Source of the DNA: a virus
Reading direction: 5' to 3' (one strand)
IMG/VR virus record: IMGVR_UViG_3300045988_015321
Span: 1 to 46,060 of that record
DNA length: 46,060 nt
Position 1 is the stretch's first letter, and every line of letters starts with the position of its first letter. The notes beneath the pieces are model-generated. The model worked only from the letters and a program-made list of their open reading frames with translations. It was not told the DNA's origin and did not search any database. The translations under genes were made by a program, and so were the position numbers. Of the stretch, positions 1 to 46,060 are shown one piece after another.

Positions 1-53
1 CGTCTGTGGATTTTATGTAGAACTTTTCGCTTTCGCTGTCCATCAGCAAAACA
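1..53. repeat. Terminal direct repeat, identical to 46008-46060 (circular-assembly overlap or terminal redundancy)
   Basis: cgtctgtggattttatgtagaacttttcgctttcgctgtccatcagcaaaaca occurs at both ends of the window. Confidence 0.95.
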
Positions 54-238
54 CTTGTCCCGGGTGCTACCAGATAGGATTTTGCACCCACTTCACCAGA
101 TACCCACAGGATACCATTGTTGTTCTGCTGTGGTTGCTGTACTGTTTGAGCTGGAATCTGGACAGGCTGTTGCTGGAACTGGTTCATCTGCCCAGGAACG
201 CCAAAACTATATTGATAAGGATTGTTATATAATGCCAT
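1..238 (-). CDS. N-terminal part of a 156-aa Q/N-rich protein that crosses the junction (continues 46007->45775)
   Basis: ATG at 238-236 is preceded by SD GAAAGGCGG. Hand translation gives MALYNNPYQYSFGVPGQMNQFQQQPVQIPAQTVQQPQQNNNGILWVSGEVGAKSYLVAPGTSVLLMDSESEK..., which joins in frame to ORF 45775..46056 through the 53-bp repeat. Confidence 0.6.
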   Translation of the reverse strand, partial: MALYNNPYQYSFGVPGQMNQFQQQPVQIPAQTVQQPQQNNNGILWVSGEVGAKSYLVAPGTSVLLMDSESEKFYIKSTD

Positions 239-272: not shown

Positions 273-306
273 AAAAAAAGAACCGGAAACAGGTCGTTTC
301 TGGCTC
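273..306 (-). terminator. Rho-independent terminator ending late unit 2
   Basis: Minus-strand hairpin GAGCCAGAAAC-gacct-GUUUCCGGUUC is followed by UUUUUUU, directly after the gene ending at 327. Confidence 0.7.
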
Positions 307-326
307 TAATTAGTATCCAAAAAGTA

Positions 327-527
327 TCAGCACACTTTGATTATTTTATTATTTACTCTCCGGCTTAATCTCTTTGCCGTTGATATGCTCACGTTCATCT
401 GTTCAGCGCAGTATTCAAGCGTATATTCCTTGCATCTCAACCGAAACAGTCTTTCTTCGTCTGGTGTGAAATTACACTCTATCAAGAACCTGTCTATATC
501 TTTTTTCGTGAACACATATAATTTCAT
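327..527 (-). CDS. Small sigma-70 region-4-like HTH protein (candidate RinA/ArpU-type late regulator)
   Basis: TPDEERLFRLRCKEYTLEYCAEQMNVSISTAKRLSRRVNNKI resembles a sigma region 4.2 HTH. SD AAGGGG lies 7 nt before the ATG at 527. The ORF-track start at 545 is a TTG. Confidence 0.6.
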   Translation of the reverse strand: MKLYVFTKKDIDRFLIECNFTPDEERLFRLRCKEYTLEYCAEQMNVSISTAKRLSRRVNNKIIKVC

Positions 528-547
528 GAGCATACCCCTTATCAATG

Positions 548-853
548 CTAACGTTGATTCTGTGCAAGATACTCCGTGAGCTTCTGCTTTGTTTTTTTTA
601 ATTCCTCAACATTATTCCCACTGATCTGACTATCCAACATGGTTGATAGTACTTCCAGAATCAATGAATCACGCTCCGCGATCCTCTGAAGACTCTCAAA
701 GTCACGCTTATCATGTTCTTCCAGTGTTTCAACTCGCTTGTTGAGTCGAAATGCCGGAGTAATCCACTTAAGAATTACGGCCACCGCTCCTCCGACAATA
801 GACACTCCTCCGCAAATTGAGAGGAATACTTGTACAAATTCTGATATGCTCAT
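548..853 (-). CDS. Membrane-anchored coiled-coil protein (one N-terminal TM helix), function unknown
   Basis: Hydrophobic N-terminus FVQVFLSICGGVSIVGGAVAVIL is followed by a charged helical region. SD AAGGAG lies 7 nt upstream of the start. Confidence 0.6.
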   Translation of the reverse strand: MSISEFVQVFLSICGGVSIVGGAVAVILKWITPAFRLNKRVETLEEHDKRDFESLQRIAERDSLILEVLSTMLDSQISGNNVEELKKTKQKLTEYLAQNQR

Positions 854-857
854 TTAG

Positions 858-1244
858 CTACTCCTTTTCCCAGTAGTATACCGGGATCTCATTACCACTA
901 TCCCATGTATCGAAATATTTGCCTTCCTGTACCGTCACCACATGGTCATATATGCAGAGAATGTATGTACCTGTCGGATGGTCTGTGCAAAAATCATTGA
1001 CTGTATAGATATATCGTTCTGACTGTTCAATTAGTTTGCGTCTGTATCCATGCTTATAGAGGTACGCTCCCCAGACATAATTTGCGCTTGGCATATCTGA
1101 TAGAGCGCACGCCTGTATCATTAATCCGGCAAATACCGTTTCCCAGTCAAAACCGGTTGCCTTGCATATTGCCCGGACAACGCAGTCTCCTGTTCTCTTA
1201 TCCTTAACGGGATTCGGATTATAATATTCCCATCTATCATCCAT
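858..1244 (-). CDS. Hypothetical protein with a papain-fold-like Cys...His...Asp pattern
   Basis: GDCVVRAICKATG (Cys) and YDHVVTVQEGKYFDTWDS (His/Asp) are present. The start overlaps the MuF stop as ATGA, suggesting translational coupling. Confidence 0.55.
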   Translation of the reverse strand: MDDRWEYYNPNPVKDKRTGDCVVRAICKATGFDWETVFAGLMIQACALSDMPSANYVWGAYLYKHGYRRKLIEQSERYIYTVNDFCTDHPTGTYILCIYDHVVTVQEGKYFDTWDSGNEIPVYYWEKE

Positions 1245-2386
1245 CAGTCAATCCCCTTTGCTGCCTTATATCGTTTTGCTGCTCCTCTGGCTTTTGCGGC
1301 GTTCTGACGGTTCCACTTCGCTATCATAAGCCGGTCTTGCAGTTCCCTTAGGTCGTTCTGCTTGCAGTAATCTTTGTATGCAGCATTTTGTTTCTGCAAA
1401 AGATAAGACTTCCGGTCAAGGTCTTGCTGAAGTGCGAATCTTGTCTGTTCATCCTTACAGTTATCAACCGCCGCTTGCATTCCGAGAACTTCTCTCTTCG
1501 TTTTGCGGATTCTCCGTTCATAAGTACGTTGCCGCTGTTCCTTTTCGTACTGTTTGCCTTTATCAGCTTTATCCTGTGCTGATAGTTCTGCATAAGGATT
1601 AAATTCTCCATCACTTGCCCCAAAACTATGCCGGCAGTTGACCCCTGACAGTCCGCTTGCCGTTCCGTATCCGGTCAATGAGAATGGCGGAAATTTCTTA
1701 CTCTTGCCAGAACGAGAGTATATCTTGCCTTGCCACCATGAGTGATTTCCGGGATTCTCGCCGTCATCACCCGTTCTGGCTCCTATGTGAGCACTGACTA
1801 GAATTAAATCCCAGTCCATTTCTTCCATGCGTTTTAGGGATATATCTCCCGTAGCCTGTGCCACACCAGTTCTGACAGAACGTGCAACTGCTGTTTCGAT
1901 GGTGTCTTTTCTGCCAGATGGGTATGTGACGGTAACACCATCTGATACAACGTTATTAACTGCCTCTTTGATGGCTTGTGTATACCCGACTGCCCCAGTC
2001 ATCACATGATTATATGCAAGGTCACATTGCTCAATATAGAGCCTCTGAGCGACACTTGCGGTTGTTCTCGTGAAGTTCTTCCACTCACCCATAGTCGCAA
2101 GCATATTTCGCTCCATGAGTCTTATCATAGCCGGAGACTGTTCAAGCGGTACGGGACTAAGCCCCGCCGCCTTATAGACTTTATCATCATAGTCCATTGC
2201 AGTGATTCCGGCATCCTCAAACGCTTCAAGAAGCTCCTGTTGTTCGCGCTTGGTGTATCTGGATAATTCTGCCAGAATGTCCTCTAGCAATTCGCCAGAT
2301 TCCTGCAATGTTCTGATTCTCCACGCATCTGCATTGGTTAGGATATAGTCTTCACCTCTGCCGATTCTTGCCACCATTCTCGACAC
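1244..2386 (-). CDS. Minor head morphogenesis protein (Mu gpF / SPP1 gp7-like); start uncertain
   Basis: Sits after the portal region, matches the MuF-like central region, and has a K/R-rich helical C-terminus. The frame stays open upstream to about 2475 with no canonical in-frame start (see findings). Confidence 0.8.
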   Translation of the reverse strand: MSRMVARIGRGEDYILTNADAWRIRTLQESGELLEDILAELSRYTKREQQELLEAFEDAGITAMDYDDKVYKAAGLSPVPLEQSPAMIRLMERNMLATMGEWKNFTRTTASVAQRLYIEQCDLAYNHVMTGAVGYTQAIKEAVNNVVSDGVTVTYPSGRKDTIETAVARSVRTGVAQATGDISLKRMEEMDWDLILVSAHIGARTGDDGENPGNHSWWQGKIYSRSGKSKKFPPFSLTGYGTASGLSGVNCRHSFGASDGEFNPYAELSAQDKADKGKQYEKEQRQRTYERRIRKTKREVLGMQAAVDNCKDEQTRFALQQDLDRKSYLLQKQNAAYKDYCKQNDLRELQDRLMIAKWNRQNAAKARGAAKRYKAAKGID

Positions 2387-2473
2387 GATCTCAGAGATGA
2401 TATACTGATGTAGTTCTTCGGCGATTTGCTCACTACCCTCTGTTATCCGGCGTAAATATTCTGGACTAAGTAT

Positions 2474-2516
2474 AGCATATCACCTCTTTCGTCAAAAGTC
2501 GTGGTACATGTTTTGA
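2474..2516 (-). promoter_or_regulatory. Late promoter-like element, copy 2 (conserved box plus extended -10)
   Basis: Minus strand reads TCAAAACATGTACCACGAC, then 18 nt, then TGA-TATGCT. Same architecture as the copies at 7848-7889 and 43586-43628. Confidence 0.5.
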
Positions 2517-2576: not shown

Positions 2577-4265
2577 TTAATACAAATCATCGATCAACAA
2601 CGCATTTGTGCAAACAAAATGTACTCCATTTTTTGCAAACTCTTTTGCTACAGATTTTTCATCTGTTGTACCAACGCCTACTTGGATATTGTTTGACAAC
2701 GCTTTAGAAACGCCATTTGAAGTAAGTTTCTCAACTGTAGAACCTATATAAACAGCATTACTATTTGTTTTAAGATTGATTGCTATATTTATTGCATCCT
2801 CATCTATATCCCTATCTACATTTACAAAAAAATTAGTAAAATCACATAGACTGTGTATATATGTTAAAAACGAATGCTCAAAAGAATTCCATACAACCTT
2901 ATCAAGCATTCCCAATTTACTTGCCACATTATACGCGCCTTTTATCCAACTATTGTCGTAGCCTCTTTTTAATTCGATAATAGGCTGTACCGATTTTACC
3001 TTACAGAAATACAAGAAATCTTCAAGTGTGCATATTTCCGTTCCTTTATATTCCACATCTTTCCAAATTCCAAAATCATATTGTTTAACATCGTTATAAG
3101 TAATAGTAGAAATATTAACAGTTTCTGGCAACATGTTTCCATTTTTGTCCCTAGCAGTTCTATTAATATTAATATCATGAGATAAAACTGGTATTCTATC
3201 AGATGTATAAACAACATCAGTCTCAATACACCTACAGCCATTTTTATATGCCAATTCAAAAGCTGGCATTGTATTTTCTGGAGCAATACTTGAATATCCT
3301 CGATGAGCCATTATAACAGTATAATCATTAAAATTATTTACCGGTTTTTTACCAATTACATCTATAAGATGTCTATTGCCTTCTATGCCACTATATGATG
3401 CAACATATTTTTCTGTAATTAATTCTATATCATTTTCTTTATATTCCTCCATAGTATCTTTCAATAATAGTCTATACTTAGTGCCTTTGCTTACTGATAC
3501 TTCATAGTTCCACCCACTATCATATAAAAAATTACCATTTTCATCATAAGAATGATATGCTAAAACAAATCTATCTTCCAACGACCTAAAAGTGGTATCA
3601 TAATATGCACAAGAAATATCTTTGCTTCTAAATCTTGATGCAGATGTTGAAACTGGAATACCGTTTGATAAAGTTCCATATACAAATTTCATGTAATTCT
3701 TTAATATATCATTTCTGTAAGTTAAATTTATCAATTCCCATTCATATGTTATTGCGCTTAAATATTCGTGAACATCAGCAATTCCAGTTGTAATTCCTGT
3801 TTTTAAAATAGTCACCGAAAACTTTGTATTTGCCGTTATTACTTTTCTATTTTTTATAAACGAATCTTTTTTTATAAAACTACCATCGTTATCATACCAA
3901 GAAAAAGCAACTTGAAATCCATCTTTAATATATAATATTAAATTTGTATCATAGGAAATGGGATGTTTATTCGATACCTGATAAATATAATCACGTTCAT
4001 ATTCGCCAGTAGAACTTTTGATATTACCAACGTCAAATTCTCCTTTTAAAATACATGTACCATTCTCTAAGTTAACTAAATCTTCCTTTAGTGAATTAGT
4101 TTCCGCCTTTACTTCTTTGAATTTGTCCCCTGTTACTTTAGCATCTGCAAAAGCGCCGTCCGCAGATAATGTTTTATCAGATACAGGCGTTTCGAGAACA
4201 CTTCCATAAGGTAACTGTCTCTTCTTCCCATCTGCTGTGATTATTCCCTTGAATGTATCTGCCAT
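2577..4265 (-). CDS. Glycerophosphodiester phosphodiesterase (GDPD) domain protein with two N-terminal beta-rich repeat modules
   Basis: IMAHRGYSSIAPENTMPAFELAYKNGCRCIETDVVYTSDRIPVLSHD matches the GDPD signature. There is an internal duplication (FQVAFSWYDNDGSF / FVLAYHSYDENGNF). SD GGAGAGGAG precedes the ATG at 4265. The gene is visibly more AT-rich than its neighbours. Confidence 0.8.
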   Translation of the reverse strand: MADTFKGIITADGKKRQLPYGSVLETPVSDKTLSADGAFADAKVTGDKFKEVKAETNSLKEDLVNLENGTCILKGEFDVGNIKSSTGEYERDYIYQVSNKHPISYDTNLILYIKDGFQVAFSWYDNDGSFIKKDSFIKNRKVITANTKFSVTILKTGITTGIADVHEYLSAITYEWELINLTYRNDILKNYMKFVYGTLSNGIPVSTSASRFRSKDISCAYYDTTFRSLEDRFVLAYHSYDENGNFLYDSGWNYEVSVSKGTKYRLLLKDTMEEYKENDIELITEKYVASYSGIEGNRHLIDVIGKKPVNNFNDYTVIMAHRGYSSIAPENTMPAFELAYKNGCRCIETDVVYTSDRIPVLSHDININRTARDKNGNMLPETVNISTITYNDVKQYDFGIWKDVEYKGTEICTLEDFLYFCKVKSVQPIIELKRGYDNSWIKGAYNVASKLGMLDKVVWNSFEHSFLTYIHSLCDFTNFFVNVDRDIDEDAINIAINLKTNSNAVYIGSTVEKLTSNGVSKALSNNIQVGVGTTDEKSVAKEFAKNGVHFVCTNALLIDDLY

Positions 4266-4269
4266 CTTT

Positions 4270-5715
4270 TTACTCCTCTCCGAATAAAGTTGGTTCGTCT
4301 GGCTGAGCTTCTTCAACCATTGCTTTAGCTTCTTCCTCAGTCATTCCCTCGAATTTTACAAAATACAACCATGCCGGAACCTTGCCAGTGGTCACATACT
4401 GCCACCATCTTGCACGGTCATTTTCACGCACATAGAGAATGTCTCCAAAATCATAATTGACCTCGTATGCTCCGACTGGCGCAAGTCCGTACAGGTCAGC
4501 GTAAACGTTCAATGCGTAAATAACTTCATCCAGACAGGATTCCAGTTTATCTCGAACGTCTTTGACGAACTGCACTGTCCTCTGCTGTTCTGCTTCTACT
4601 CCTGTAGCCGTCTGTATGCCGCTAGATTCGTTAAAAACAAAGTATCCGTTGGAGAATCCAATCTTGTACCCTAACTGGCTTAAAATGGCGTTTATGCCGC
4701 TTATACGGGTATCTGTGTTGAGAATTGGATTGATTTCCTGATAGAACTCTTTCTCATCCTGCCCGAATACATTCTTGACAAAGTGCGGTAATTTCATCTC
4801 ATTACGTCTGTTCTCCATACCCTGCGGTGACATGGCTGCTACAGGTGTACCGCTTGGCATCAGCAGTCTATCATCTGCCAAGACAATCTTCTGCGAATCA
4901 AAAATCTCTCCGGCGTTCCTGCTGTATGCAATATCGAGGTCTTTTAACTCTTCGATAGCTTCGGCAAATATTGGCAAACCCAATGGTGCGTTAATATCCA
5001 CGTTATTTGCCTGTGGTGTCCGTAGAACTCCGTACAGAGGTCCGTCCAACTTCTCCCCGTTCGCCTTGAGGATTGGCGGAGTGTCTGCCATTAGGTCAGC
5101 CCACTTGGTCTGTTTGAGGTCAATCTTGTCTCCGATTGACTGAGGGGATTTTGATACATAGGCTCTGTTAGAAACATAATACGGATAGGTTGTCACTCCA
5201 TCCACAGTGGTCTCAACAAAACGATGATATTCAAGCCGTGTGTAGTATTTCCTTCCAACTGTATAAGAATCTTTGAATATAATCCCTTTGATTTCCTGAT
5301 TATCGTAATCTACAATTATCACATCTGCCGGAGTGAATATGTCAAGGCTCTCACCATTTGGTTTGATAAATACTGTTCCGTAGGCACAGCCGTACTCTAC
5401 CCAGTGCCGAATCCGGAAATATACCTTGTTGATCTGCTGCTGTAACCATGCTGCCCTTGCGGAACCGTCTATCTGAATGCCGATTGCCAGCGTTGCGAGC
5501 CGAGCTGTCTCTGAGCAGACGGATTTCGCGAAATTAATCGTCTTGATGTTATCATTATCATCTATCCATTCCGGTACTCCCCTGTAAATGTTCGCGCACC
5601 GGTTAATCAACGATTCCATTTCTGGAAACTCTGCCGCCTGGATATTAAAGTCCTCTTCGGCTTGTTTTTTGAAAATCATGTTAAACCACCTTTTTAGTGT
5701 TTTTATAAGTCCCAT
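4270..5715 (-). CDS. Portal protein (SPP1 gp6-like)
   Basis: 481 aa, located immediately downstream of the terminase, with overall similarity to SPP1-family portals. Confidence 0.88.
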   Translation of the reverse strand: MGLIKTLKRWFNMIFKKQAEEDFNIQAAEFPEMESLINRCANIYRGVPEWIDDNDNIKTINFAKSVCSETARLATLAIGIQIDGSARAAWLQQQINKVYFRIRHWVEYGCAYGTVFIKPNGESLDIFTPADVIIVDYDNQEIKGIIFKDSYTVGRKYYTRLEYHRFVETTVDGVTTYPYYVSNRAYVSKSPQSIGDKIDLKQTKWADLMADTPPILKANGEKLDGPLYGVLRTPQANNVDINAPLGLPIFAEAIEELKDLDIAYSRNAGEIFDSQKIVLADDRLLMPSGTPVAAMSPQGMENRRNEMKLPHFVKNVFGQDEKEFYQEINPILNTDTRISGINAILSQLGYKIGFSNGYFVFNESSGIQTATGVEAEQQRTVQFVKDVRDKLESCLDEVIYALNVYADLYGLAPVGAYEVNYDFGDILYVRENDRARWWQYVTTGKVPAWLYFVKFEGMTEEEAKAMVEEAQPDEPTLFGEE

Positions 5716-25578: not shown

Positions 25579-26688
25579 ATGGCAACTGCAAAAAAACTGC
25601 CATCTGGCTCATGGAGATGTCAGGTATTCAGTCACATCGAAGAAATCCCGTTATCAGACGGGACTATCAAAAAGAAAAGGGTTTATAAATCTTTTACATG
25701 TTCAGATCCTAGCAAAAAAGGGAAGCGAATCTGTGAGCAAATGGCTGCCGAATGGGCAGCAAAAAAAGAAAGTGAAGTATTGACTGCGCGATATGTTCCA
25801 CCAGAAGATATGACATTAAAAGAGGCATGTAATAAATACATAGAAAGCAGAACAGGTGTTTTATCCCCTGGAACTATTAGAGAATATAAGCGATCTGTCA
25901 AAAGAGACATGGCTAAACTTATGTCATTAAATATAATGGAAATCACTCAAGAGGATGTTCAAGCTGAAATGAATCGTGAAGCACTTACTCATTCGCCAAA
26001 AACTGTGTACAATATGCATGGCTTTCTTTCTACTGTCTTGAAGACTTATCGTTCGGATTTCATCTTAAGAACTTCCTTACCTAAAAAGGTAAGACCGAAA
26101 ATCTATGTACCTACATCTGCCGAAGTCAAAAAGGTAATTGAATGTACTGTAGGTAGTGAATTAGAGATACCTGTTCTTCTGGCAGCGTTCGGTCCGATGA
26201 GGCGGTCAGAAATCTGTGCGCTTAATTCTGATCATATCAAGCAGAACATAGTACATGTCGAATATGCTATGGTTATGAATGATTCTCATGGTTGGGTTAT
26301 CAAAAGACCAAAATCTTTTGCTGGTGACAGATTCATTTCATATCCAGGTTTTGTTGCAGATAAATTAAAAGGAATACATGGGAAAATAACAAATTTGAAC
26401 CCATCGCAAATATCCGACAGATTTTCAGATCTGTTAGATGACAATCAGATTCATCATTTTCGATTCCATGATTTACGTCATTATTGTGCATCTGAACTTC
26501 ATTCACTCGGTATTCCAGATGTATATATTATGCAGCGCGGCGGTTGGGAGGATGATACCACATTAAAAAATGTATATCGGCACGTTCTGGTTGATCGAGA
26601 AAAAGAGATGAATGAAATTGGGAATGATTATTTTTCCAAGCTATGCAACACAAAATGCAACACGAAAAAAGAAAGTGCTGAAAAATAG
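25579..26688 (+). CDS. int: Tyrosine recombinase / phage integrase
   Basis: Catalytic-region motifs are present: MRRSEICAL (Arg), HDLRHYCAS (H-x-x-R), GGWEDDTTLKNVYRH (Tyr). SD AAGGAGG. Confidence 0.95.
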   Translation: MATAKKLPSGSWRCQVFSHIEEIPLSDGTIKKKRVYKSFTCSDPSKKGKRICEQMAAEWAAKKESEVLTARYVPPEDMTLKEACNKYIESRTGVLSPGTIREYKRSVKRDMAKLMSLNIMEITQEDVQAEMNREALTHSPKTVYNMHGFLSTVLKTYRSDFILRTSLPKKVRPKIYVPTSAEVKKVIECTVGSELEIPVLLAAFGPMRRSEICALNSDHIKQNIVHVEYAMVMNDSHGWVIKRPKSFAGDRFISYPGFVADKLKGIHGKITNLNPSQISDRFSDLLDDNQIHHFRFHDLRHYCASELHSLGIPDVYIMQRGGWEDDTTLKNVYRHVLVDREKEMNEIGNDYFSKLCNTKCNTKKESAEK

Positions 26689-27751: not shown

Positions 27752-28360
27752 TCATTTCTGCATCGTTCCTCTATAGTCCTTGTAGAACACATCCATGTCA
27801 ACATTTCCGCTGATTCCTGGAACTTTTCCTTTACGGGAATACTGCCAGCCTACACCGACATTCGGACGCAATCTTTCCTGCACAGAACCATTGTCGCTTG
27901 CCGGATAACGAGCAATCCAACAATCATACTGCTTCAAAGCATCTGACAGAACGTTATTATACCAGTCCAGATTACAGTAGATACCGGCCTTATAACCAGC
28001 TTTCTTGATTCTGGTCAGAAACGCTACTGCAATATTCTCGATAGCCTGTTTTCCGAGACTTCTTTGCTGTGCCCATTCCAGATCGTAGAATACTGGAAAG
28101 TCCAGTCCACGTCCACCAAGAACGGAAATTACGTTCTCAGCTTCGTCAATCGCCTGTGCCGGTGTTAAAGCGTAACTGTATTTGTATCCTCCGATAAGAA
28201 TTCCATTGGATTTACAGCCCTTGTAGTTGTGTTCAAAGGATGCATCAATTCCAGATTTCTGATAGATTCTTAATATTGCAAACTTAACTCCAGAATTCGA
28301 TACTTTTGCCCAATCCGGTTTTCCTTGAAAAGACGATACGTCAATTCCTTTAATTTCCAT
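27752..28360 (-). CDS. Endolysin 1: GH25 muramidase
   Basis: GIDVSSFQGKPDWAKVSNSGVKFAILRI is the canonical GH25 N-terminus. Confidence 0.9.
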   Translation of the reverse strand: MEIKGIDVSSFQGKPDWAKVSNSGVKFAILRIYQKSGIDASFEHNYKGCKSNGILIGGYKYSYALTPAQAIDEAENVISVLGGRGLDFPVFYDLEWAQQRSLGKQAIENIAVAFLTRIKKAGYKAGIYCNLDWYNNVLSDALKQYDCWIARYPASDNGSVQERLRPNVGVGWQYSRKGKVPGISGNVDMDVFYKDYRGTMQK

Positions 28361-42485: not shown

Positions 42486-43118
42486 TCACTGGAATAACTG
42501 GATATTCTGTGCAATTGCAGCCTGTCTCTCGGACGGGTCTTTGATCGCTTCGATATCTTTCTTCGTCATGCTTCCCGGTGTCTGCTGCTGTCCAACGTGA
42601 GTGGTAAATCTTGCCTGGTTCTGCTGAGCCTGCTGCTGAGATTCATCTACAAAAGCGGATGCGTCAGACTGTTTCATCTGCTCAATCAGGTCGTTCAGCC
42701 CGAGAATTTTACCATCTTTCAGTTTGAGGCCTGCTTCTTTAATATCTGCCATAACAGACTTCTTTGCAGCTTCGCTTGAAAATTTAACATCATCAAGTGC
42801 TGTTTTAAGTGCGTCTGAAAAATCGCGGTCATAGATCTTTGCGTTGAATTCCTTCTCTGCGTCCTCAGCCTTCTTCTTCCATCCAGCAAGCTCTGTCTGA
42901 ATGTTCGCCGGGTCAATACCGTCGAAACCTTTTAAGGTTTCTTCTGCTGTCTCAGCACGTTCTTTCCAGCCATCACGTTCTCCCTCGACTTTTGACAGAG
43001 TTTTCGCTACTTCTTTTGCATTCTTATAATGCTCAGAGAGTGCTTTTTTCACATCTGCCTGTTTGTCCTCCGGGATTTCAATTCCAAATGATTTTAATGT
43101 GTCAATAAGTTTCTGCAT
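42486..43118 (-). CDS. Scaffolding protein
   Basis: SD AGGAGG lies 6 nt before the ATG at 43118 (MQKLIDTLKSFG...). It is an acidic, coiled-coil protein. The upstream part of the ORF-track version lies in the structured leader. Confidence 0.8.
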   Translation of the reverse strand: MQKLIDTLKSFGIEIPEDKQADVKKALSEHYKNAKEVAKTLSKVEGERDGWKERAETAEETLKGFDGIDPANIQTELAGWKKKAEDAEKEFNAKIYDRDFSDALKTALDDVKFSSEAAKKSVMADIKEAGLKLKDGKILGLNDLIEQMKQSDASAFVDESQQQAQQNQARFTTHVGQQQTPGSMTKKDIEAIKDPSERQAAIAQNIQLFQ

Positions 43119-43578
43119 ATGCATCCTCCTGGTCGTGTTTATTGACCTGCCGCCGCAGGTAAGTGGATTAAGCCAGTTAGACCACTGGCAGGGTAAGCGG
43201 AACTTCCAGAGTCGAACTGGAAAACTTGTATCTATATATATTTGTCCTATATCCGATAGGTTCCACATAACCCGGATTCCCGGGTTAGCAAGGTATTTTA
43301 CGTGCTATGCCTAAACACGGAACGTTCGGGCTACGTCAACACCGCCTATACGGTCGCACACCTCTGCACGGGTTGGATTTCACTGTTCAGTTATATGCTC
43401 ACAAGGAGGTATGCCGCCATGCACTAACGGCAATGGTACGTGTCGGAAATTGCATCCGCTTTTCAACCTCCAGGTTCCGCCCGAACCTGTTTCTGTTAAG
43501 GACACGCGCCTAAGAAAGGAGGAATCAATGAAAAAATGTCTATGTCAAGTGGCTACAACCACTTACGAATCTTCCTTA
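43119..43578 (-). ncRNA. Long structured 5' leader / candidate large ncRNA with a tRNA-like minihelix
   Basis: No credible ORF, GC-rich by eye, with many nested complementary segments and a T-arm/acceptor mimic at 43197-43266 (details in findings). Strand is inferred from the upstream promoter-like element. Confidence 0.5.
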
Positions 43579-43585
43579 TGAATAC

Positions 43586-43628
43586 ATTTTACCACAGAAC
43601 CTCCAAAAAGTTGTGGTACATGTTTTGA
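43586..43628 (-). promoter_or_regulatory. Late promoter-like element, copy 3 (conserved box plus extended -10)
   Basis: Minus strand reads TCAAAACATGTACCACAAC, then 18 nt, then TGG-TAAAAT. Confidence 0.6.
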
Positions 43629-43632
43629 CTAA

Positions 43633-44187
43633 TTAGAGCATATCACGGAGCTTTTCCACGTATCTTTTAACAAGATCACGTTCCTCCCGGCACTCCGCAT
43701 CCTTGGACATATCGCTCATTTCTGTTGTGAGTTCGTCCAGATGTTCTTCCAGAGCGGCAAGCATCTTTCTCTTGCAGTCCTCGGATTTGCCGGAACGATA
43801 GCTCTGTTTCTGCGTCATATAGTCGTCATAAGCATCTCGTCCGTCAGAACGGCTGTAATGTCCTCTGACATAATGCTCACCGCGTCTGGCATAAGAACTA
43901 CCCCTGTCGTAATCCGGCATCATTCTGCCGTCATTTGAGCTGTATCTCCCCATGCTGTCGCGCTTTCTTCCACGTTCGCTGTAATCGTCATTGTAGCCAC
44001 CACGCATCTCATCAAGGACAGTATTGTAATATTCCACTTTCTTGTCCCAGTACTGCGTATTCTTGATATCTTTATACATATCAATCAGTTTGTATGTCAT
44101 TTCCAGATTTCCAGTGGTCAGCCCACTGTCAGCAATTTTGGACAGTTCGTCTTCAATTCTTGCACATAAGTCTTTAATGTCTCTCAT
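43633..44187 (-). CDS. Hypothetical protein with a central R/G/Y/D/S-rich disordered region
   Basis: SD AGGAGG lies 7 nt before the ATG at 44187. The core reads RGGYNDDYSERGRKRDSMGRYSSNDGRMMPDYDRGSSYARRGEHYVRGHYSRSDGRDAYDDY, flanked by helical ends. Confidence 0.6.
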   Translation of the reverse strand: MRDIKDLCARIEDELSKIADSGLTTGNLEMTYKLIDMYKDIKNTQYWDKKVEYYNTVLDEMRGGYNDDYSERGRKRDSMGRYSSNDGRMMPDYDRGSSYARRGEHYVRGHYSRSDGRDAYDDYMTQKQSYRSGKSEDCKRKMLAALEEHLDELTTEMSDMSKDAECREERDLVKRYVEKLRDML

Positions 44188-44198
44188 AATCACACCTC

Positions 44199-44621
44199 CT
44201 ATGCTTCTCTGGTCACAACAATGTTTGCGTTCGCAACAGAAACAGCCTGATCGCTTGTATTCTCTACTGCGATATTAACGCAACATCCGCGAGGTACATC
44301 AATATAGATTCCAGAGGACACATTGTTGTACTGGTCTACTGCTGCCGGTGTGGAAATCATCTGAGAAGAAAGAACCGGCTCACCAGATATTGCAATAGCC
44401 AGAGAGATAGCCCCGACAGTACCACCTGTTGGAATTGCAATATTACCAGAAAAATCCACGAAGAATCTAGCCTTGCACTGGTTAGTAAGTCCTCTCAGCG
44501 TAATGATTCCACTTCCCTCCCTGTGTTGAATGCAGTTAGAACCTTTGACTGCTGTGTTTGAAAATACTACGTTTCCATTTGCTGCTACAGTCTGAGCAGC
44601 TACATTTGTAAATTCTGCCAT
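44199..44621 (-). CDS. Small beta-rich protein, BclA-C-terminal / C1q-TNF-like jelly-roll candidate
   Basis: 140 aa with alternating beta pattern (VVFSNTAV..., ITLRG..., ARFFVDFSGNIAI, ISLAIAISGEPV, VNIAVEN, ANIVVT). SD AAAGGAG. Confidence 0.55.
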   Translation of the reverse strand: MAEFTNVAAQTVAANGNVVFSNTAVKGSNCIQHREGSGIITLRGLTNQCKARFFVDFSGNIAIPTGGTVGAISLAIAISGEPVLSSQMISTPAAVDQYNNVSSGIYIDVPRGCCVNIAVENTSDQAVSVANANIVVTREA

Positions 44622-44731
44622 AAAAATACTCCTTTCATATCACAAAAGGACAGGTCTCAGCCTGCCCCTCTGTGTAATACGGCATAAGCCGACATCCGAA
44701 TCAATCGAAAGATACTCTCGATATGAAGTTG

Positions 44732-45508
44732 TTAACAATTACATCCGGTGTTGCATCCGCATCCGTAATATGTGTTCGGATTAGGAACCTGATATGCCGG
44801 AATCGGTGCTGGATTAATCGCATTAATGAGCTGCTGTGTCTGAGAAGCCATTGCAGTTGTGAGAAGCGCACTCTGGCGATCCTGAGAAGCGGCACGTCTG
44901 AGGTCGTTATTTTCAGCCTGGAGATTGGATATCTTCTCGTTGCACAGGTAATCAAGGATTGCCCTTGTTCCGGCGTTCTGGCTGTCGATAATGTCTCTTG
45001 TGTTACTGTTCATGGTGTTCTGCAATGCACAGGTATTCTGTGCCATGTTGTAGTTTATGCCCTGGATTGCTTCTCTGGTTTCGCAGCAGCAGTTTGCAAG
45101 CTGTGCCTGGAGTGCATTGGTATTCTGCATATTTGCTACAGTGTCAGCATTAATAGCCTGCTGAATGCCGAAACCAGTCTGCATGATGTTTGTGTTGATT
45201 CCGTTAAATCCGGTAAGCATACCGTTATTCATAGCATAGAAGCCATCACACAGGCCGCTATTGATTCCGTCAAGCTTGCTGATTACAGCGGAATTGTCGA
45301 ATCCTCTCTGAATATCTGCCTGAGTAGCTGCTGTAGCTACATATCCTCCGCCGTTTCCATTATTGCCCCAGCCGTTGTTTCCCCATCCGCAAAATGCGAA
45401 CAAGAAAAGCACGATAAGCCACCATGCGCCATCTCCGCCAAACATTCCATCATTTCTGTTGTTCCCGGTCAAAAGAGCAACGTCTGATGCTGTTAAATTT
45501 CCATCCAT
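44732..45508 (-). CDS. Membrane-anchored N/Q/G-rich, Cys-rich protein (YjcZ-like N-terminus)
   Basis: N-terminus GGDGAWWLIVLFLFAFCGWGNNGWGNNGNGGG, a Q/N-rich helical core with CCC and other conserved Cys, and the C-terminus YYGCGCNTGCNC. SD AAGGAG. Confidence 0.6.
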   Translation of the reverse strand: MDGNLTASDVALLTGNNRNDGMFGGDGAWWLIVLFLFAFCGWGNNGWGNNGNGGGYVATAATQADIQRGFDNSAVISKLDGINSGLCDGFYAMNNGMLTGFNGINTNIMQTGFGIQQAINADTVANMQNTNALQAQLANCCCETREAIQGINYNMAQNTCALQNTMNSNTRDIIDSQNAGTRAILDYLCNEKISNLQAENNDLRRAASQDRQSALLTTAMASQTQQLINAINPAPIPAYQVPNPNTYYGCGCNTGCNC

Positions 45509-45560
45509 AGTTATAATCTCCTTTTTTGTATTTACATCAATCTGGCCAGATTGTAATGTA

Positions 45561-45782
45561 CTATTTTATATTTTTCAGCAGATTTTGGAACTGCCCTGCC
45601 ATCTGTTGAACCTGATTAAGCTGTTGCTGTGAAATCCTTCCAGACTGCAACATTTTCTGGACTTCTTCTTTTGGGTTTCCTTTATAATTCTGTTTAAATT
45701 GCATGAATTGTTGTATCATCTGCATTGGTCCGTTTCCCTGTGGCACCCCACCACCGAGGGCATTAAATAATGGATTACTCAT
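45561..45782 (-). CDS. Small Q-rich hypothetical protein
   Basis: SD GGAGG lies 8 nt before the ATG at 45782 (MSNPLFNALGGGVPQGNGPMQMIQQFMQFKQ...). Confidence 0.55.
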   Translation of the reverse strand: MSNPLFNALGGGVPQGNGPMQMIQQFMQFKQNYKGNPKEEVQKMLQSGRISQQQLNQVQQMAGQFQNLLKNIK

Positions 45783-46060
45783 TTGCATTTCCTCCATTGA
45801 CTGCTGATTCCTGTACGGTATTAGCTCTAACAGGTTCAGAAAAAGAATTTAATCGGTTTATGATAGCTTCGTATTTGCCCTTTAAATCGTCATATTCCTG
45901 TCTGGTGACGTATTTACTGTCCATGTTCTGAACAGGCTGTTTAGGTGACATCTGAGTGCCTATTTCATGATATTCAAACGTACGTAATGGCTGTGGCATA
46001 CCGGAAACGTCTGTGGATTTTATGTAGAACTTTTCGCTTTCGCTGTCCATCAGCAAAACA
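45775..46060 (-). CDS. C-terminal part of the junction-spanning 156-aa Q/N-rich protein (N-terminus at 238..1)
   Basis: In frame with 1-238 through the 53-bp repeat. Reads ...LLMDSESEKFYIKSTDVSGMPQPLRTFEYHEIG... Confidence 0.6.
   Translation of the reverse strand, partial: VLLMDSESEKFYIKSTDVSGMPQPLRTFEYHEIGTQMSPKQPVQNMDSKYVTRQEYDDLKGKYEAIINRLNSFSEPVRANTVQESAVNGGNANE
46008..46060. repeat. Terminal direct repeat, identical to 1-53
   Basis: Exact 53-bp identity with the window start. Confidence 0.95.

Follow-up and report, generated by a model that had tools for sequence, protein, structure and literature searches.

The system functionally closest to the locus described here is the anchoring of BclA by ExsFA/BxpB in the exosporium nap of the Bacillus cereus group, together with F-Anchor and F-BclA. 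The clefts of ExsF trimers bind proline-rich leader peptides, as seen in a crystal structure with the F-Anchor peptide LPPIYIP, and the BclA N-terminus is cleaved (PMC12357932). The present analysis concerns a stretch of viral DNA of 46,060 nt (IMG/VR record IMGVR_UViG_3300045988_015321, positions 1 to 46,060; hereafter the window), in which a cassette of small minus-strand genes lies between the gene for a MuF-type minor capsid protein and that for the head scaffolding protein. One of the cassette proteins, P4, is predicted to have the TNF/C1q jelly roll of the exosporium proteins (TM-score 0.68–0.78), and only this fold is demonstrably shared between the two systems. P4 also resembles ExsF in being a stand-alone protein of ~140–170 aa with no signal peptide, and the cassette resembles ExsF–BclA in pairing such a protein with a partner that carries a conserved Pro-rich motif, and in holding a putative protease as well as Cys-rich and disordered proteins. 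Unlike ExsF–BclA, however, it offers no collagen-like protein, no match to a leader hidden Markov model (HMM) and no ExsY/CotY-type basal-layer protein; P4 is paired with a membrane protein; and the cassette is phage-borne, one of the phages that carry it having a host not known to sporulate.

Other described systems invite comparison. The morons of temperate Firmicutes phages are likewise variable in position (including the junction of lysis genes and integrase), present in some relatives and absent from others, and dispensable for particles, and the cassette is further like them in having an upstream terminator and its own putative regulator. Typical morons, however, consist of one or two genes of known host-directed function (toxins, exclusion), whereas the cassette has six or seven, keeps its gene order across deeply diverged lineages, comes in two versions, and also occurs within a head operon and in a phage that appears to be virulent. 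Jelly-roll or C1q-like capsid cement proteins and fibre knobs would share with P4 the trimeric jelly roll, expression late in infection and assembly in the cytoplasm, but P4 has no shaft or capsid-binding region, is locked to a membrane protein, and is absent from the related Blautia phage Montmirail. Finally, membrane-anchored coiled-coil scaffolds of the phi29 p16.7 type have a transmembrane segment at the N-terminus, then a helical stalk, and a region for interactions at the C-terminus; by description, the architecture of the cassette protein P3 is alike, with its C-terminal region presumed cytoplasmic, and P3 differs in having no DNA-binding domain and in its conserved Cys clusters.

The reading that is tentatively preferred, at somewhat less than even confidence, is that the cassette works as an accessory module in its own right, expressed late, whose products build an ExsF/BclA-like assembly anchored in the membrane. 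As part of this reading, the cassette would be self-contained and horizontally mobile in siphophages of Clostridia, and merely lodged between MuF and scaffold in a lineage of Blautia phages.

The cassette and its edges

The genes, with the edges of the insertion and the terminator that divides it, are as follows, in the order of transcription.

1244..2479, minus strand: MuF / Phage_min_cap2 minor capsid gene, upstream edge of the insertion (PF06152, matched on the identical gene of related contigs)
858..1244, minus strand: Pm3, 128 aa, first gene of the conserved cassette, directly after MuF (phrog_3754, E 1e-35)
548..853, minus strand: open reading frame (ORF) for a 101-aa protein, N-terminal transmembrane segment followed by a coiled coil; lineage-specific, in all four near-identical contigs
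327..545, minus strand: sigma-70 region-4-like helix-turn-helix (HTH) protein, 68–72 aa (phrog_1190 'RNA polymerase sigma factor', E 1.8e-6)
273..307, minus strand: intrinsic terminator between the HTH gene and P1 (hairpin ~279–307, U-run to 273; −17.7 kcal/mol, z = −4.6)
1..238, minus strand: P1, 5' part (156 aa in total, running 238 to 1 and then 46007 to 45778; phrog_21718, E 4e-38)
45775..46007, minus strand: P1, 3' part with stop codon (ORF on the circle)
45561..45782, minus strand: P2, 73-aa Q-rich helical protein (phrog_22984, E 3e-27; alignment)
44732..45508, minus strand: P3, 258-aa single-pass membrane protein (phrog_16490, E 4e-58; alignment)
44199..44621, minus strand: P4, 140 aa, predicted stand-alone TNF/C1q fold of the BclA C-terminal domain (CTD) / ExsF type (AlphaFold2, Foldseek; phrog_20016, E 2e-61)
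43633..44193, minus strand: P5, 184/186 aa (phrog_28802, E 2e-63; alignment and composition)
42486..43124, minus strand: head scaffolding gene, downstream edge of the insertion (PF06810, E 2e-22; phrog_194)

All five minus-strand ORFs that the first-pass annotation had drawn across the circular junction are present, with the coordinates and sequences it gave them, and its statement that the order of MuF followed by scaffold is broken by a separately terminated unit holds, given the PF06152 and PF06810 flanks and the terminator (which it had placed at 273–306, and which has the folding energy, z-score and U-run listed above). The five genes are real and collinear, but they are only part of the unit: the insertion between MuF and scaffold comprises eight genes, namely Pm3, the 101-aa transmembrane protein and the 68-aa HTH protein and, beyond the terminator, P1 to P5, and both Pm3 and the HTH gene accompany P1–P5 in other genomes. 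The start of Pm3 overlaps the stop of MuF, the end of P1 overlaps the start of P2, and ~5 nt separate P4 from P5. Each of P1–P5 matches a PHROG family (E 1e-27 to 1e-63), which on sequence grounds makes them real genes rather than chance ORFs. All of these families are labelled 'unknown function' and none belongs to a structural category, in agreement with the earlier views that none is a canonical virion protein and that the module is undescribed; no paper joining BclA, prophage and Lachnospiraceae was found in the literature.

P4, a predicted jelly roll of the exosporium type

Structures were predicted for P4 and Pm3. The AlphaFold2 model of P4, computed from an alignment of 50 sequences (relatives 38–59% identical), is all-beta, with a predicted local distance difference test score (pLDDT) of 97.9 and a predicted TM-score of 0.90, and with high confidence it describes a ten-strand jelly roll of the TNF/C1q kind. 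The top Foldseek match in the PDB is F-BclA-CTD (9h38; E 6e-8, TM-score 0.74–0.78), and further matches include EDA/TNF ligands, BclA-CTD (1wck, TM-score 0.68), ExsFA/BxpB (7r1m, 8d02 and 9h3d, TM-score ~0.76) and C1q heads; the Foldseek probability is 1.00 for 9h38, 1wck, 7r1m, 8d02, EDA and C1q. A cyanophage tail-fibre CBD and the phi812 spike knob are also among the PDB matches. Sequence identity between P4 and its structural relatives of the exosporium is 11–16%. The Pfam family BclA_C (PF18573) gives no match to P4 of the window at E ≤ 1 and matches 6 of 50 diverse relatives (best E 1.2e-7), so that P4 is best described as a distant relative of BclA_C rather than a scored member. The model, the F-BclA-CTD, BclA-CTD and ExsFA matches and the BclA_C hits together bear out the first-pass suggestion of a C1q/TNF-like BclA C-terminal domain. 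Its proposed alternative, Ena/DUF3992 (PF13157), finds no backing: one of 50 P4 relatives matches, at E 0.48, and no Ena structure is present among the best 50 Foldseek matches.

P4 is not BclA proper, in which a leader and a collagen-like GXX region precede the CTD: P4 and the 150 representatives listed, of 700 in the family, are stand-alone, and mostly single-domain proteins of ~140 aa. These 700 are representative clusters at 50% identity (E ≤ 0.001), and the families of P3, P4 and Pm3 each have at least 8,000 candidates in protein searches. In BFVD, similar stand-alone P4-like proteins are found in many uncultured gut phages, and the matches include collagen/C1q fibre proteins. By analogy with its structural relatives, P4 would form trimers. 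Among metagenomic sequences there are in-frame chimeras (P0124, P0212 and P0133) that join the N-terminus of Pm3 to P4, or the N-terminus of P1' (the counterpart of P1 in a second version of the cassette, below) to the C-terminal part of P4; as domain fusions they were rejected, since they are probably deletion variants or assembly artefacts.

P3, the membrane protein that accompanies P4

P3 has a hydrophobic segment at residues 27–41 (15 residues, mean Kyte-Doolittle value 2.1) between flanks rich in G, N and W, and it contains 11 Cys, ending in the C-terminus YYGCGCNTGCNC. An alignment of 14 diverse homologues gives the layout, from the N-terminus, of an acidic N-tail, the transmembrane segment, a G/N/W-rich linker, an N/Q-rich helical region (~170 residues) with CCC, a PxPAY motif and a tail of the GCGC type; the N/Q-rich region carries a strongly conserved block, TRDIIDxQNAxTRAILDxL. 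The Cys motifs are nearly invariant (CCC in 133/133 homologues and a C[GN]C tail in 131/133), and the N-tail of these 133 homologues has on average 3.7 D+E against 0.9 K+R. The acidic N-tail, the conserved Cys, and partner proteins that have no detectable hydrophobic (signal-peptide-like) segment suggest that the bulk of P3, its helical N/Q-rich part of ~200 residues, is cytoplasmic.

No Pfam, NCBIfam or PDB match was obtained for P3, and PADLOC returned only ZorA (E 0.0075), at the level of a coiled coil. The first-pass annotation had compared its N-terminus with YjcZ-type sporulation peptides; the corresponding HMM (TIGR01732) matches neither P3 of the window nor any of the 14 homologues at E ≤ 10, and the comparison comes down to a likeness of composition only, that of a G-rich flank beside a hydrophobic helix. 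The resemblance of the P3 motif PxPAYxV to the leader LPPIYIP is likewise by eye only.

Synteny, versions and mobility

Gene order was compared by running an HMM for each family on six-frame ORFs of 175 loci (15 diverse, 80 of the species of the window and 80 of a distant clade, all designated by L numbers). The five families of the cassette, for which a co-occurrence check had been proposed, are co-occurring and collinear in many other phage genomes. Of the 15 diverse loci, which come from phages or genomes, 11 have the order Pm3-(HTH)-P1-P2-P3-P4-P5; the same order is kept in 66 of 80 IMG/VR loci of the window's species (most of the others end at contig edges, and L031 and L038 are without P1–P2) and in 71 of 80 loci of the distant, high-GC clade, in which P4 is ~40% identical and the remainder end at contig edges. 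A locus search with P4 of the window recovered only near-identical copies of the same phage, and one with P0225 gave no matches.

The genomic position of the cassette is not fixed. The window, Dulem virus 35 (L002), L007 and L012 have it between MuF and scaffold; it follows an endolysin and a sigma-r4 HTH gene in Butyrivibrio phage Ceridwen, in Dulem virus 33 and in the clade of L102 and L157, with an integrase after it in Dulem virus 33 and L102/L157; and in Dulem virus 39 it follows the integrase. In the cultured Blautia phage Montmirail, to whose 'minor head protein' the MuF of the window is 54% identical, a 40-aa ORF separates MuF from the genes for scaffold and major head protein, with no cassette there and no P4 homologue anywhere in the genome. 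Phages with head modules of this family can therefore assemble heads without the cassette, and the cultured relative without it, together with the other genomic positions it occupies, makes a role in head assembly unlikely. Among the properties by which a moron is recognized, the cassette has presence/absence polymorphism, variable location and, in the terminator, a transcription signal of its own.

A second version of the cassette (version B) in Dulem virus 39, L005 and L006 retains P3 and P4, the only components common to both versions; in L005 these are 85% and 81% identical to those of the window, while P1', P2' and P5' are barely or not alignable. P1' is distantly related to P1 (phrog_21718, 7e-11). 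Comparison of the versions with hhalign gives no homology of P2 with P2' and, for P5 and P5', only that of the last helix (79%), for which reason P2' and P5' are taken as positional or compositional analogues and not as proven homologues. Retention of P3 and P4 in both versions while the partner genes change makes P3–P4 the exchangeable core. Version A has Pm3 before P1, and version B has a SprT-like HExxH protease after P5; a protease of one kind or the other thus appears to be a constant requirement of the cassette. The version-B cassettes of L005 (15091–15693) and L006 (15797–16402) have one bacterial flank (a reductase like those of nonribosomal peptide synthetases; an AlbA_2-type regulator) and another with small ORFs and a protein that resembles a small terminase subunit by eye, which may be the edge of a prophage or of a satellite-like element.

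Insertions are seen within the cassette: in Ceridwen (L001, 8449–9312) a 287-aa ORF separates P4 from P5, and in Dulem virus 33 (L004, 8410–8961) P2 and P3 have between them a gene that is annotated as an endonuclease and runs in the opposite direction. The cassette tolerates insertions of selfish elements, with its gene order kept. Ceridwen (L001, 9711–10037) and the high-GC clade (L157 and L102, 8815–9114) have a further conserved gene of ~100 aa after P5, which carries the motif AWxVMDELMxxxxVxNxRxYxxVMxxL, has no family match and is absent from the window.

The hosts are Clostridia, for example Blautia obeum, Eubacterium ramulus and Agathobacter; many such Clostridia sporulate, and Butyrivibrio, the host of Ceridwen, is not known to. 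According to its isolation paper Ceridwen was isolated as a plaque-former and seen only in lytic growth, and its authors consider it virulent; host sporulation is not mentioned in that paper. Since such a phage carries it, the cassette must serve some purpose during lytic growth.

Pm3 and the HTH protein

Pm3 is the most conserved component of the cassette (mean column identity 71%) and lies directly 5' of P1 in 11 of the 15 diverse loci and in 71 of 80 loci of the distant clade. Asp20-Cys21, His101 and Asp112 are invariant in 62 homologues, and in the AlphaFold2 model (pLDDT 91.8) a helix has Cys21 at its N-terminal end and a strand begins with His101; the order of Cys, His and Asp and their secondary-structure context are those of the papain fold. 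Pm3 is on this basis a putative papain-like cysteine peptidase, and one database source labels a member of its cluster 'endopeptidase'. No Pfam, PADLOC or PDB-sequence match was obtained, and Foldseek matches to C-type-lectin and cupin structures (E 0.3–1) were rejected (TM-score < 0.2). The idea that P2 is a bacteriocin-like, double-glycine leader processed by Pm3 as a C39-like peptidase was also dropped, the GG not being kept in the P2 of Ceridwen.

The HTH protein is named 'ECF (extracytoplasmic function) sigma factor' in database sources. Against Pfam Sigma70_r4 the protein of the window scores 16.3 bits (E 0.007), below the cut-off of 24.1, and its counterpart in L157 scores 23.6 bits, below the Sigma70_r4_2 cut-off of 25.7. 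Homologues stand ahead of the cassette in L002, L005, L007, L011, L012, L157 and Ceridwen, which makes the HTH protein a probable regulator of the cassette. The 101-aa transmembrane protein has no family match in Pfam, PHROG or PADLOC scans.

P1, P2 and P5

The compositional claims of the first-pass annotation (a Q/N-rich N-terminus of P1, a Q-rich P2, the anchor and Cys of P3, an R/G/Y/D-rich core of P5) are confirmed by residue counts: residues 1–42 of P1 are 43% Q+N, P2 is 33% Q+N, and residues 61–135 of P5 are 72% R/G/Y/D/S. Its label 'low-complexity' applies to parts of P1, P2 and P5 but not to their conserved cores, which are a beta-rich domain in P1 and helical segments elsewhere. In the alignment P1 consists of a variable Q/N/P/Y-rich N-terminus, a conserved beta-rich core of ~50 residues (19 invariant columns) with the motif WVxGExGAK...DS...YxKSxD..GxP, and a C-terminal helix. 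P5 has an N-terminal helical hairpin, a disordered R/G/Y/D/S-rich core with a HYVRGHYSR motif, and a C-terminal helix, the terminal helices being conserved; it has 184 aa if read from the ATG at 44187 and 186 aa from the GTG at 44193. P2 has 73 aa from the ATG at 45782 and 78 aa from 45797, and the shorter form is favoured because homologues begin with MSNP.

For P1, P2, P3 and P5 no match in Pfam, NCBIfam or PADLOC rose above noise, even when each sequence in the family alignments was scanned. PDB sequence profile searches with P1, P3, P4, P5 and Pm3 gave no accepted match; hits such as 'VP5' and 'PON4' were rejected as short coiled-coil or low-complexity similarities.

Transcription signals and RNA elements

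None of 200 shuffles is as stable as the hairpin of the terminator ahead of P1, and the same arrangement (hairpin, T-run, ~35 nt, start codon) precedes the first cassette gene in most other lineages. Other elements in and beside the cassette are these.

45538..45553: 16-nt perfect palindrome CAATCTGGCCAGATTG, 29 nt 5' of the P3 start
44645..44670, minus strand: GC-rich terminator-like hairpin with T-rich tract, 23 nt 5' of the P4 start (−14 kcal/mol)
43435..43510, minus strand: RAGATH-21 RNA (Rfam RF03097, full-length, 91 bits against a gathering threshold of 70.3)

At the site upstream of P3 other lineages (L002–L015 were examined) have different perfect palindromes, for example ATCGTGGCCACGAT and ATCGTGCGCACGAT, so that the sequence varies while palindromy is kept. 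A hairpin equivalent to that before P4 lies 22–30 nt ahead of the P4 start in 11 of 15 P3–P4 spacers (the window and 14 loci). The palindrome before P3 and the hairpin before P4 could be an operator or an attenuator. A scan and inspection by eye for a sporulation-sigma or sigma-70 promoter 5' of P1 gave nothing convincing.

The RAGATH-21 RNA lies in the non-coding gap of ~510 nt between P5 and scaffold (43125–43632), the remainder of which is GC-rich. A copy was matched in 59 of 80 window-like loci (78 of which carry P5 and scaffold), always between these two genes where both were called, and also in Dulem virus 35 (L002) and L012. Because it is absent where the cassette follows lysis genes, the RNA belongs to the 5' region of scaffold and not to the cassette; the text of the paper from which the RAGATH motifs come says nothing about RAGATH-21. 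RNAs of the Breaker-laboratory type are plentiful in cassette-bearing phages and elements, including RAGATH-27, int-alpA, skipping-rope, DUF3800-VIII, RT-18 and FuFi-1. Type II hammerhead ribozymes occur twice each in L003 (12918–12985, 15127–15191) and L006 (12504–12572, 13821–13889), RAGATH-18 is found in Ceridwen, and the RNA sites noted include 702–774 in L001 and 19297–19380 in L003.

The phage genome

The window is a circular temperate siphophage of the Blautia type. Its last 53 nt (46008–46060) copy positions 1–53, and this terminal direct repeat is therefore read as a circular-assembly overlap, which gives a true genome of 46,007 bp. The siphophage gene set includes a terminase, portal (phrog_533), major head protein (phrog_544), an endolysin (27755–28360) and a tyrosine integrase (25579–26685). 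Exact sequences of cassette proteins are found in genomes of Blautia obeum isolates and in thousands of metagenomic contigs, and an assembly collection has the identical P4 sequence in 4,515 of its indexed blocks.

Between portal and MuF the window has a gene for a 579-aa protein (2577–4316, minus strand) with a C-terminal glycerophosphodiester-phosphodiesterase-like domain (phrog_13515 'phosphodiesterase'); the same site is empty in the near-identical phages L176 and L177 and in L178 holds a gene for a 610-aa pectate-lyase-like protein. The portal–MuF gap is a second variable insertion hot spot of the head operon and, since its content varies within the species of the window, the head operon tolerates insertions. 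Genes for Phage_holin_5_2 and DUF4417 proteins stand amid the head-tail connector genes, far from the endolysin (at ~14.2–15.6 kb in L176–L179 and ~39.1–40.8 kb in the window).

A membrane-anchored assembly as the preferred explanation

Under the preferred explanation, the cassette would be transcribed late, by read-through or antitermination past the upstream terminator and possibly under its own HTH protein, and the internal hairpins would set the ratio of products. P3 would insert in the cell membrane and oligomerize via its helical stalk. Trimers of P4 would dock on the Pro-rich C-terminal motif of P3 (PxPAYxVxxP, followed by GCGC), as ExsF trimers do on the Pro-rich leaders of BclA and F-Anchor, while the coiled-coil or low-complexity proteins P1, P2 and P5 would serve as adaptor, chaperone or matrix parts. 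Pm3, or in version B the SprT-like metalloprotease, would trim one of the components, comparable to the trimming of the BclA N-terminus on attachment. The outcome would be a robust protein assembly, similar to an exosporium nap, on the membrane of the infected cell; the product would not be a capsid part. The best guess for its benefit is one at the level of the envelope, during or after late infection: phage exclusion, regulation of lysis or of the integrity of the envelope, or a surface layer that persists on lysis debris.

Several points weigh against this explanation. The exosporium-leader HMM (TIGR03720) has no match in the 14 P3 homologues at E ≤ 10, and the charge bias C-terminal of the P3 transmembrane segment is weak. 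The Pm3 model has no significant Foldseek neighbour in the PDB, the best plausible one being Josephin-2 (TM-score 0.46, E 0.84, not significant). Docking of P4 on P3, trimerization of P4, the topology of P3 and catalysis by Pm3 are all inferred. A module of six genes is unusually elaborate for exclusion or lysis control, and the benefit is a guess. Finally, the cassette is inside the head operon in five lineages and as conserved as the structural genes, which fits a role in the virion as well.

Alternative explanations

The likeliest alternative, though unlikely in itself, is that the cassette encodes an optional decoration or fibre of the virion: capsid or neck would be decorated by P4 trimers, as a jelly-roll cement or knob, to which P1 and P5 would contribute coiled coils or linkers, with P2 as assembly chaperone, Pm3 as maturation protease, and P3 as a membrane-bound platform or a membrane-active part of the particle. 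The location within the head operon in the window, L002, L007, L011 and L012 implies late co-transcription, the partner proteins lack segments resembling signal peptides, and the cassette is about as conserved in sequence as MuF and scaffold; C1q/TNF-like heads are, moreover, common on viral fibres (the collagen/C1q fibres of BFVD, the cyanophage tail-fibre CBD and the phi812 knob). The inseparable partner of P4 is, however, a membrane protein, while particles of tailed phages have no membrane, and P4 itself has no stalk or capsid-binding extension (150 of 700 representatives listed, mostly ~140 aa). In Ceridwen, Dulem virus 33 and L102/L157 the cassette stands after the lysis genes, behind its own terminator and HTH gene; Montmirail has the same head module and no cassette; and no cassette protein matches a PHROG family of a structural category.

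Quite unlikely is a module of lysogenic conversion, whose proteins would be made in the mother cell and form an exosporium-like addition on the forespore membrane, or else act at the host cell surface, with P3 as anchor, P4 as the ExsF/BclA-like unit, P5 as a disordered protein like CotG or ExsB, and Pm3 as a YabG-like protease. This explanation takes up the first-pass idea of a spore-surface function, of which the exosporium-like fold of P4 stands, exosporium proteins being its best structural matches, while the idea as a whole is weakened by the presence of the cassette in Ceridwen, seen only in lytic growth. Assembly in the mother cell would require no signal peptides, the proteins are Cys-rich, and the cassette has its own sigma-like HTH protein and terminator; several temperate lineages hold it between lysis genes and integrase, a classical site of morons, and the hosts are Clostridia, of which many sporulate. 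Against this, Ceridwen is considered virulent, and its isolation paper is silent on host sporulation; in the lineage of the window the cassette is embedded in a late head operon; the YjcZ and exosporium-leader HMMs find no match; and no sporulation-type promoter was identified, on inspection by eye only.

A defence system was dropped, there being no PADLOC match and the cassette being present in a virulent phage. That the genes have no joint function and are unrelated small hitch-hiking neighbours, as might be supposed from the fact that only P4 has a recognizable family, is scarcely credible given the strict gene order kept across lineages at 40–60% protein identity and in differing genomic positions, the P1/P2 overlap, the P4–P5 distance of ~5 nt and the conserved intergenic hairpins, and the parallel version with analogous components.

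Significance

The position of these genes between MuF and scaffold is no ground for labelling them head proteins in annotation. For study of the cassette there are several entry points: a confident P4 fold with a known binding mode in its relatives, the P3–P4 core, the two protease-bearing versions, and a cultured pair of phages with and without the cassette (Ceridwen and Montmirail). If ExsF-like docking of P4 is true, an anchoring principle of spore surfaces has been recruited by phages. A more far-reaching possibility, which is speculative and held to be improbable, is that the cassette represents a new 'auxiliary structural' class of phage genes, encoding a cross-linkable, exosporium-like coat (a membrane anchor, a BclA/ExsF-type trimer, a Q/N- and RGY-rich matrix and a dedicated protease) on the membrane of dying cells, on spores of lysogens or on released particles; such a coat, if real, would give phage or host persistence or adhesion in the gut and be, in effect, the equivalent among bacterial viruses of a spore coat or an occlusion matrix. 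The cassette is carried by prophages of common Lachnospiraceae of the human gut such as Blautia obeum, and an abundant module of six to seven genes of this kind amounts to a sizeable piece of the dark matter of the gut virome.

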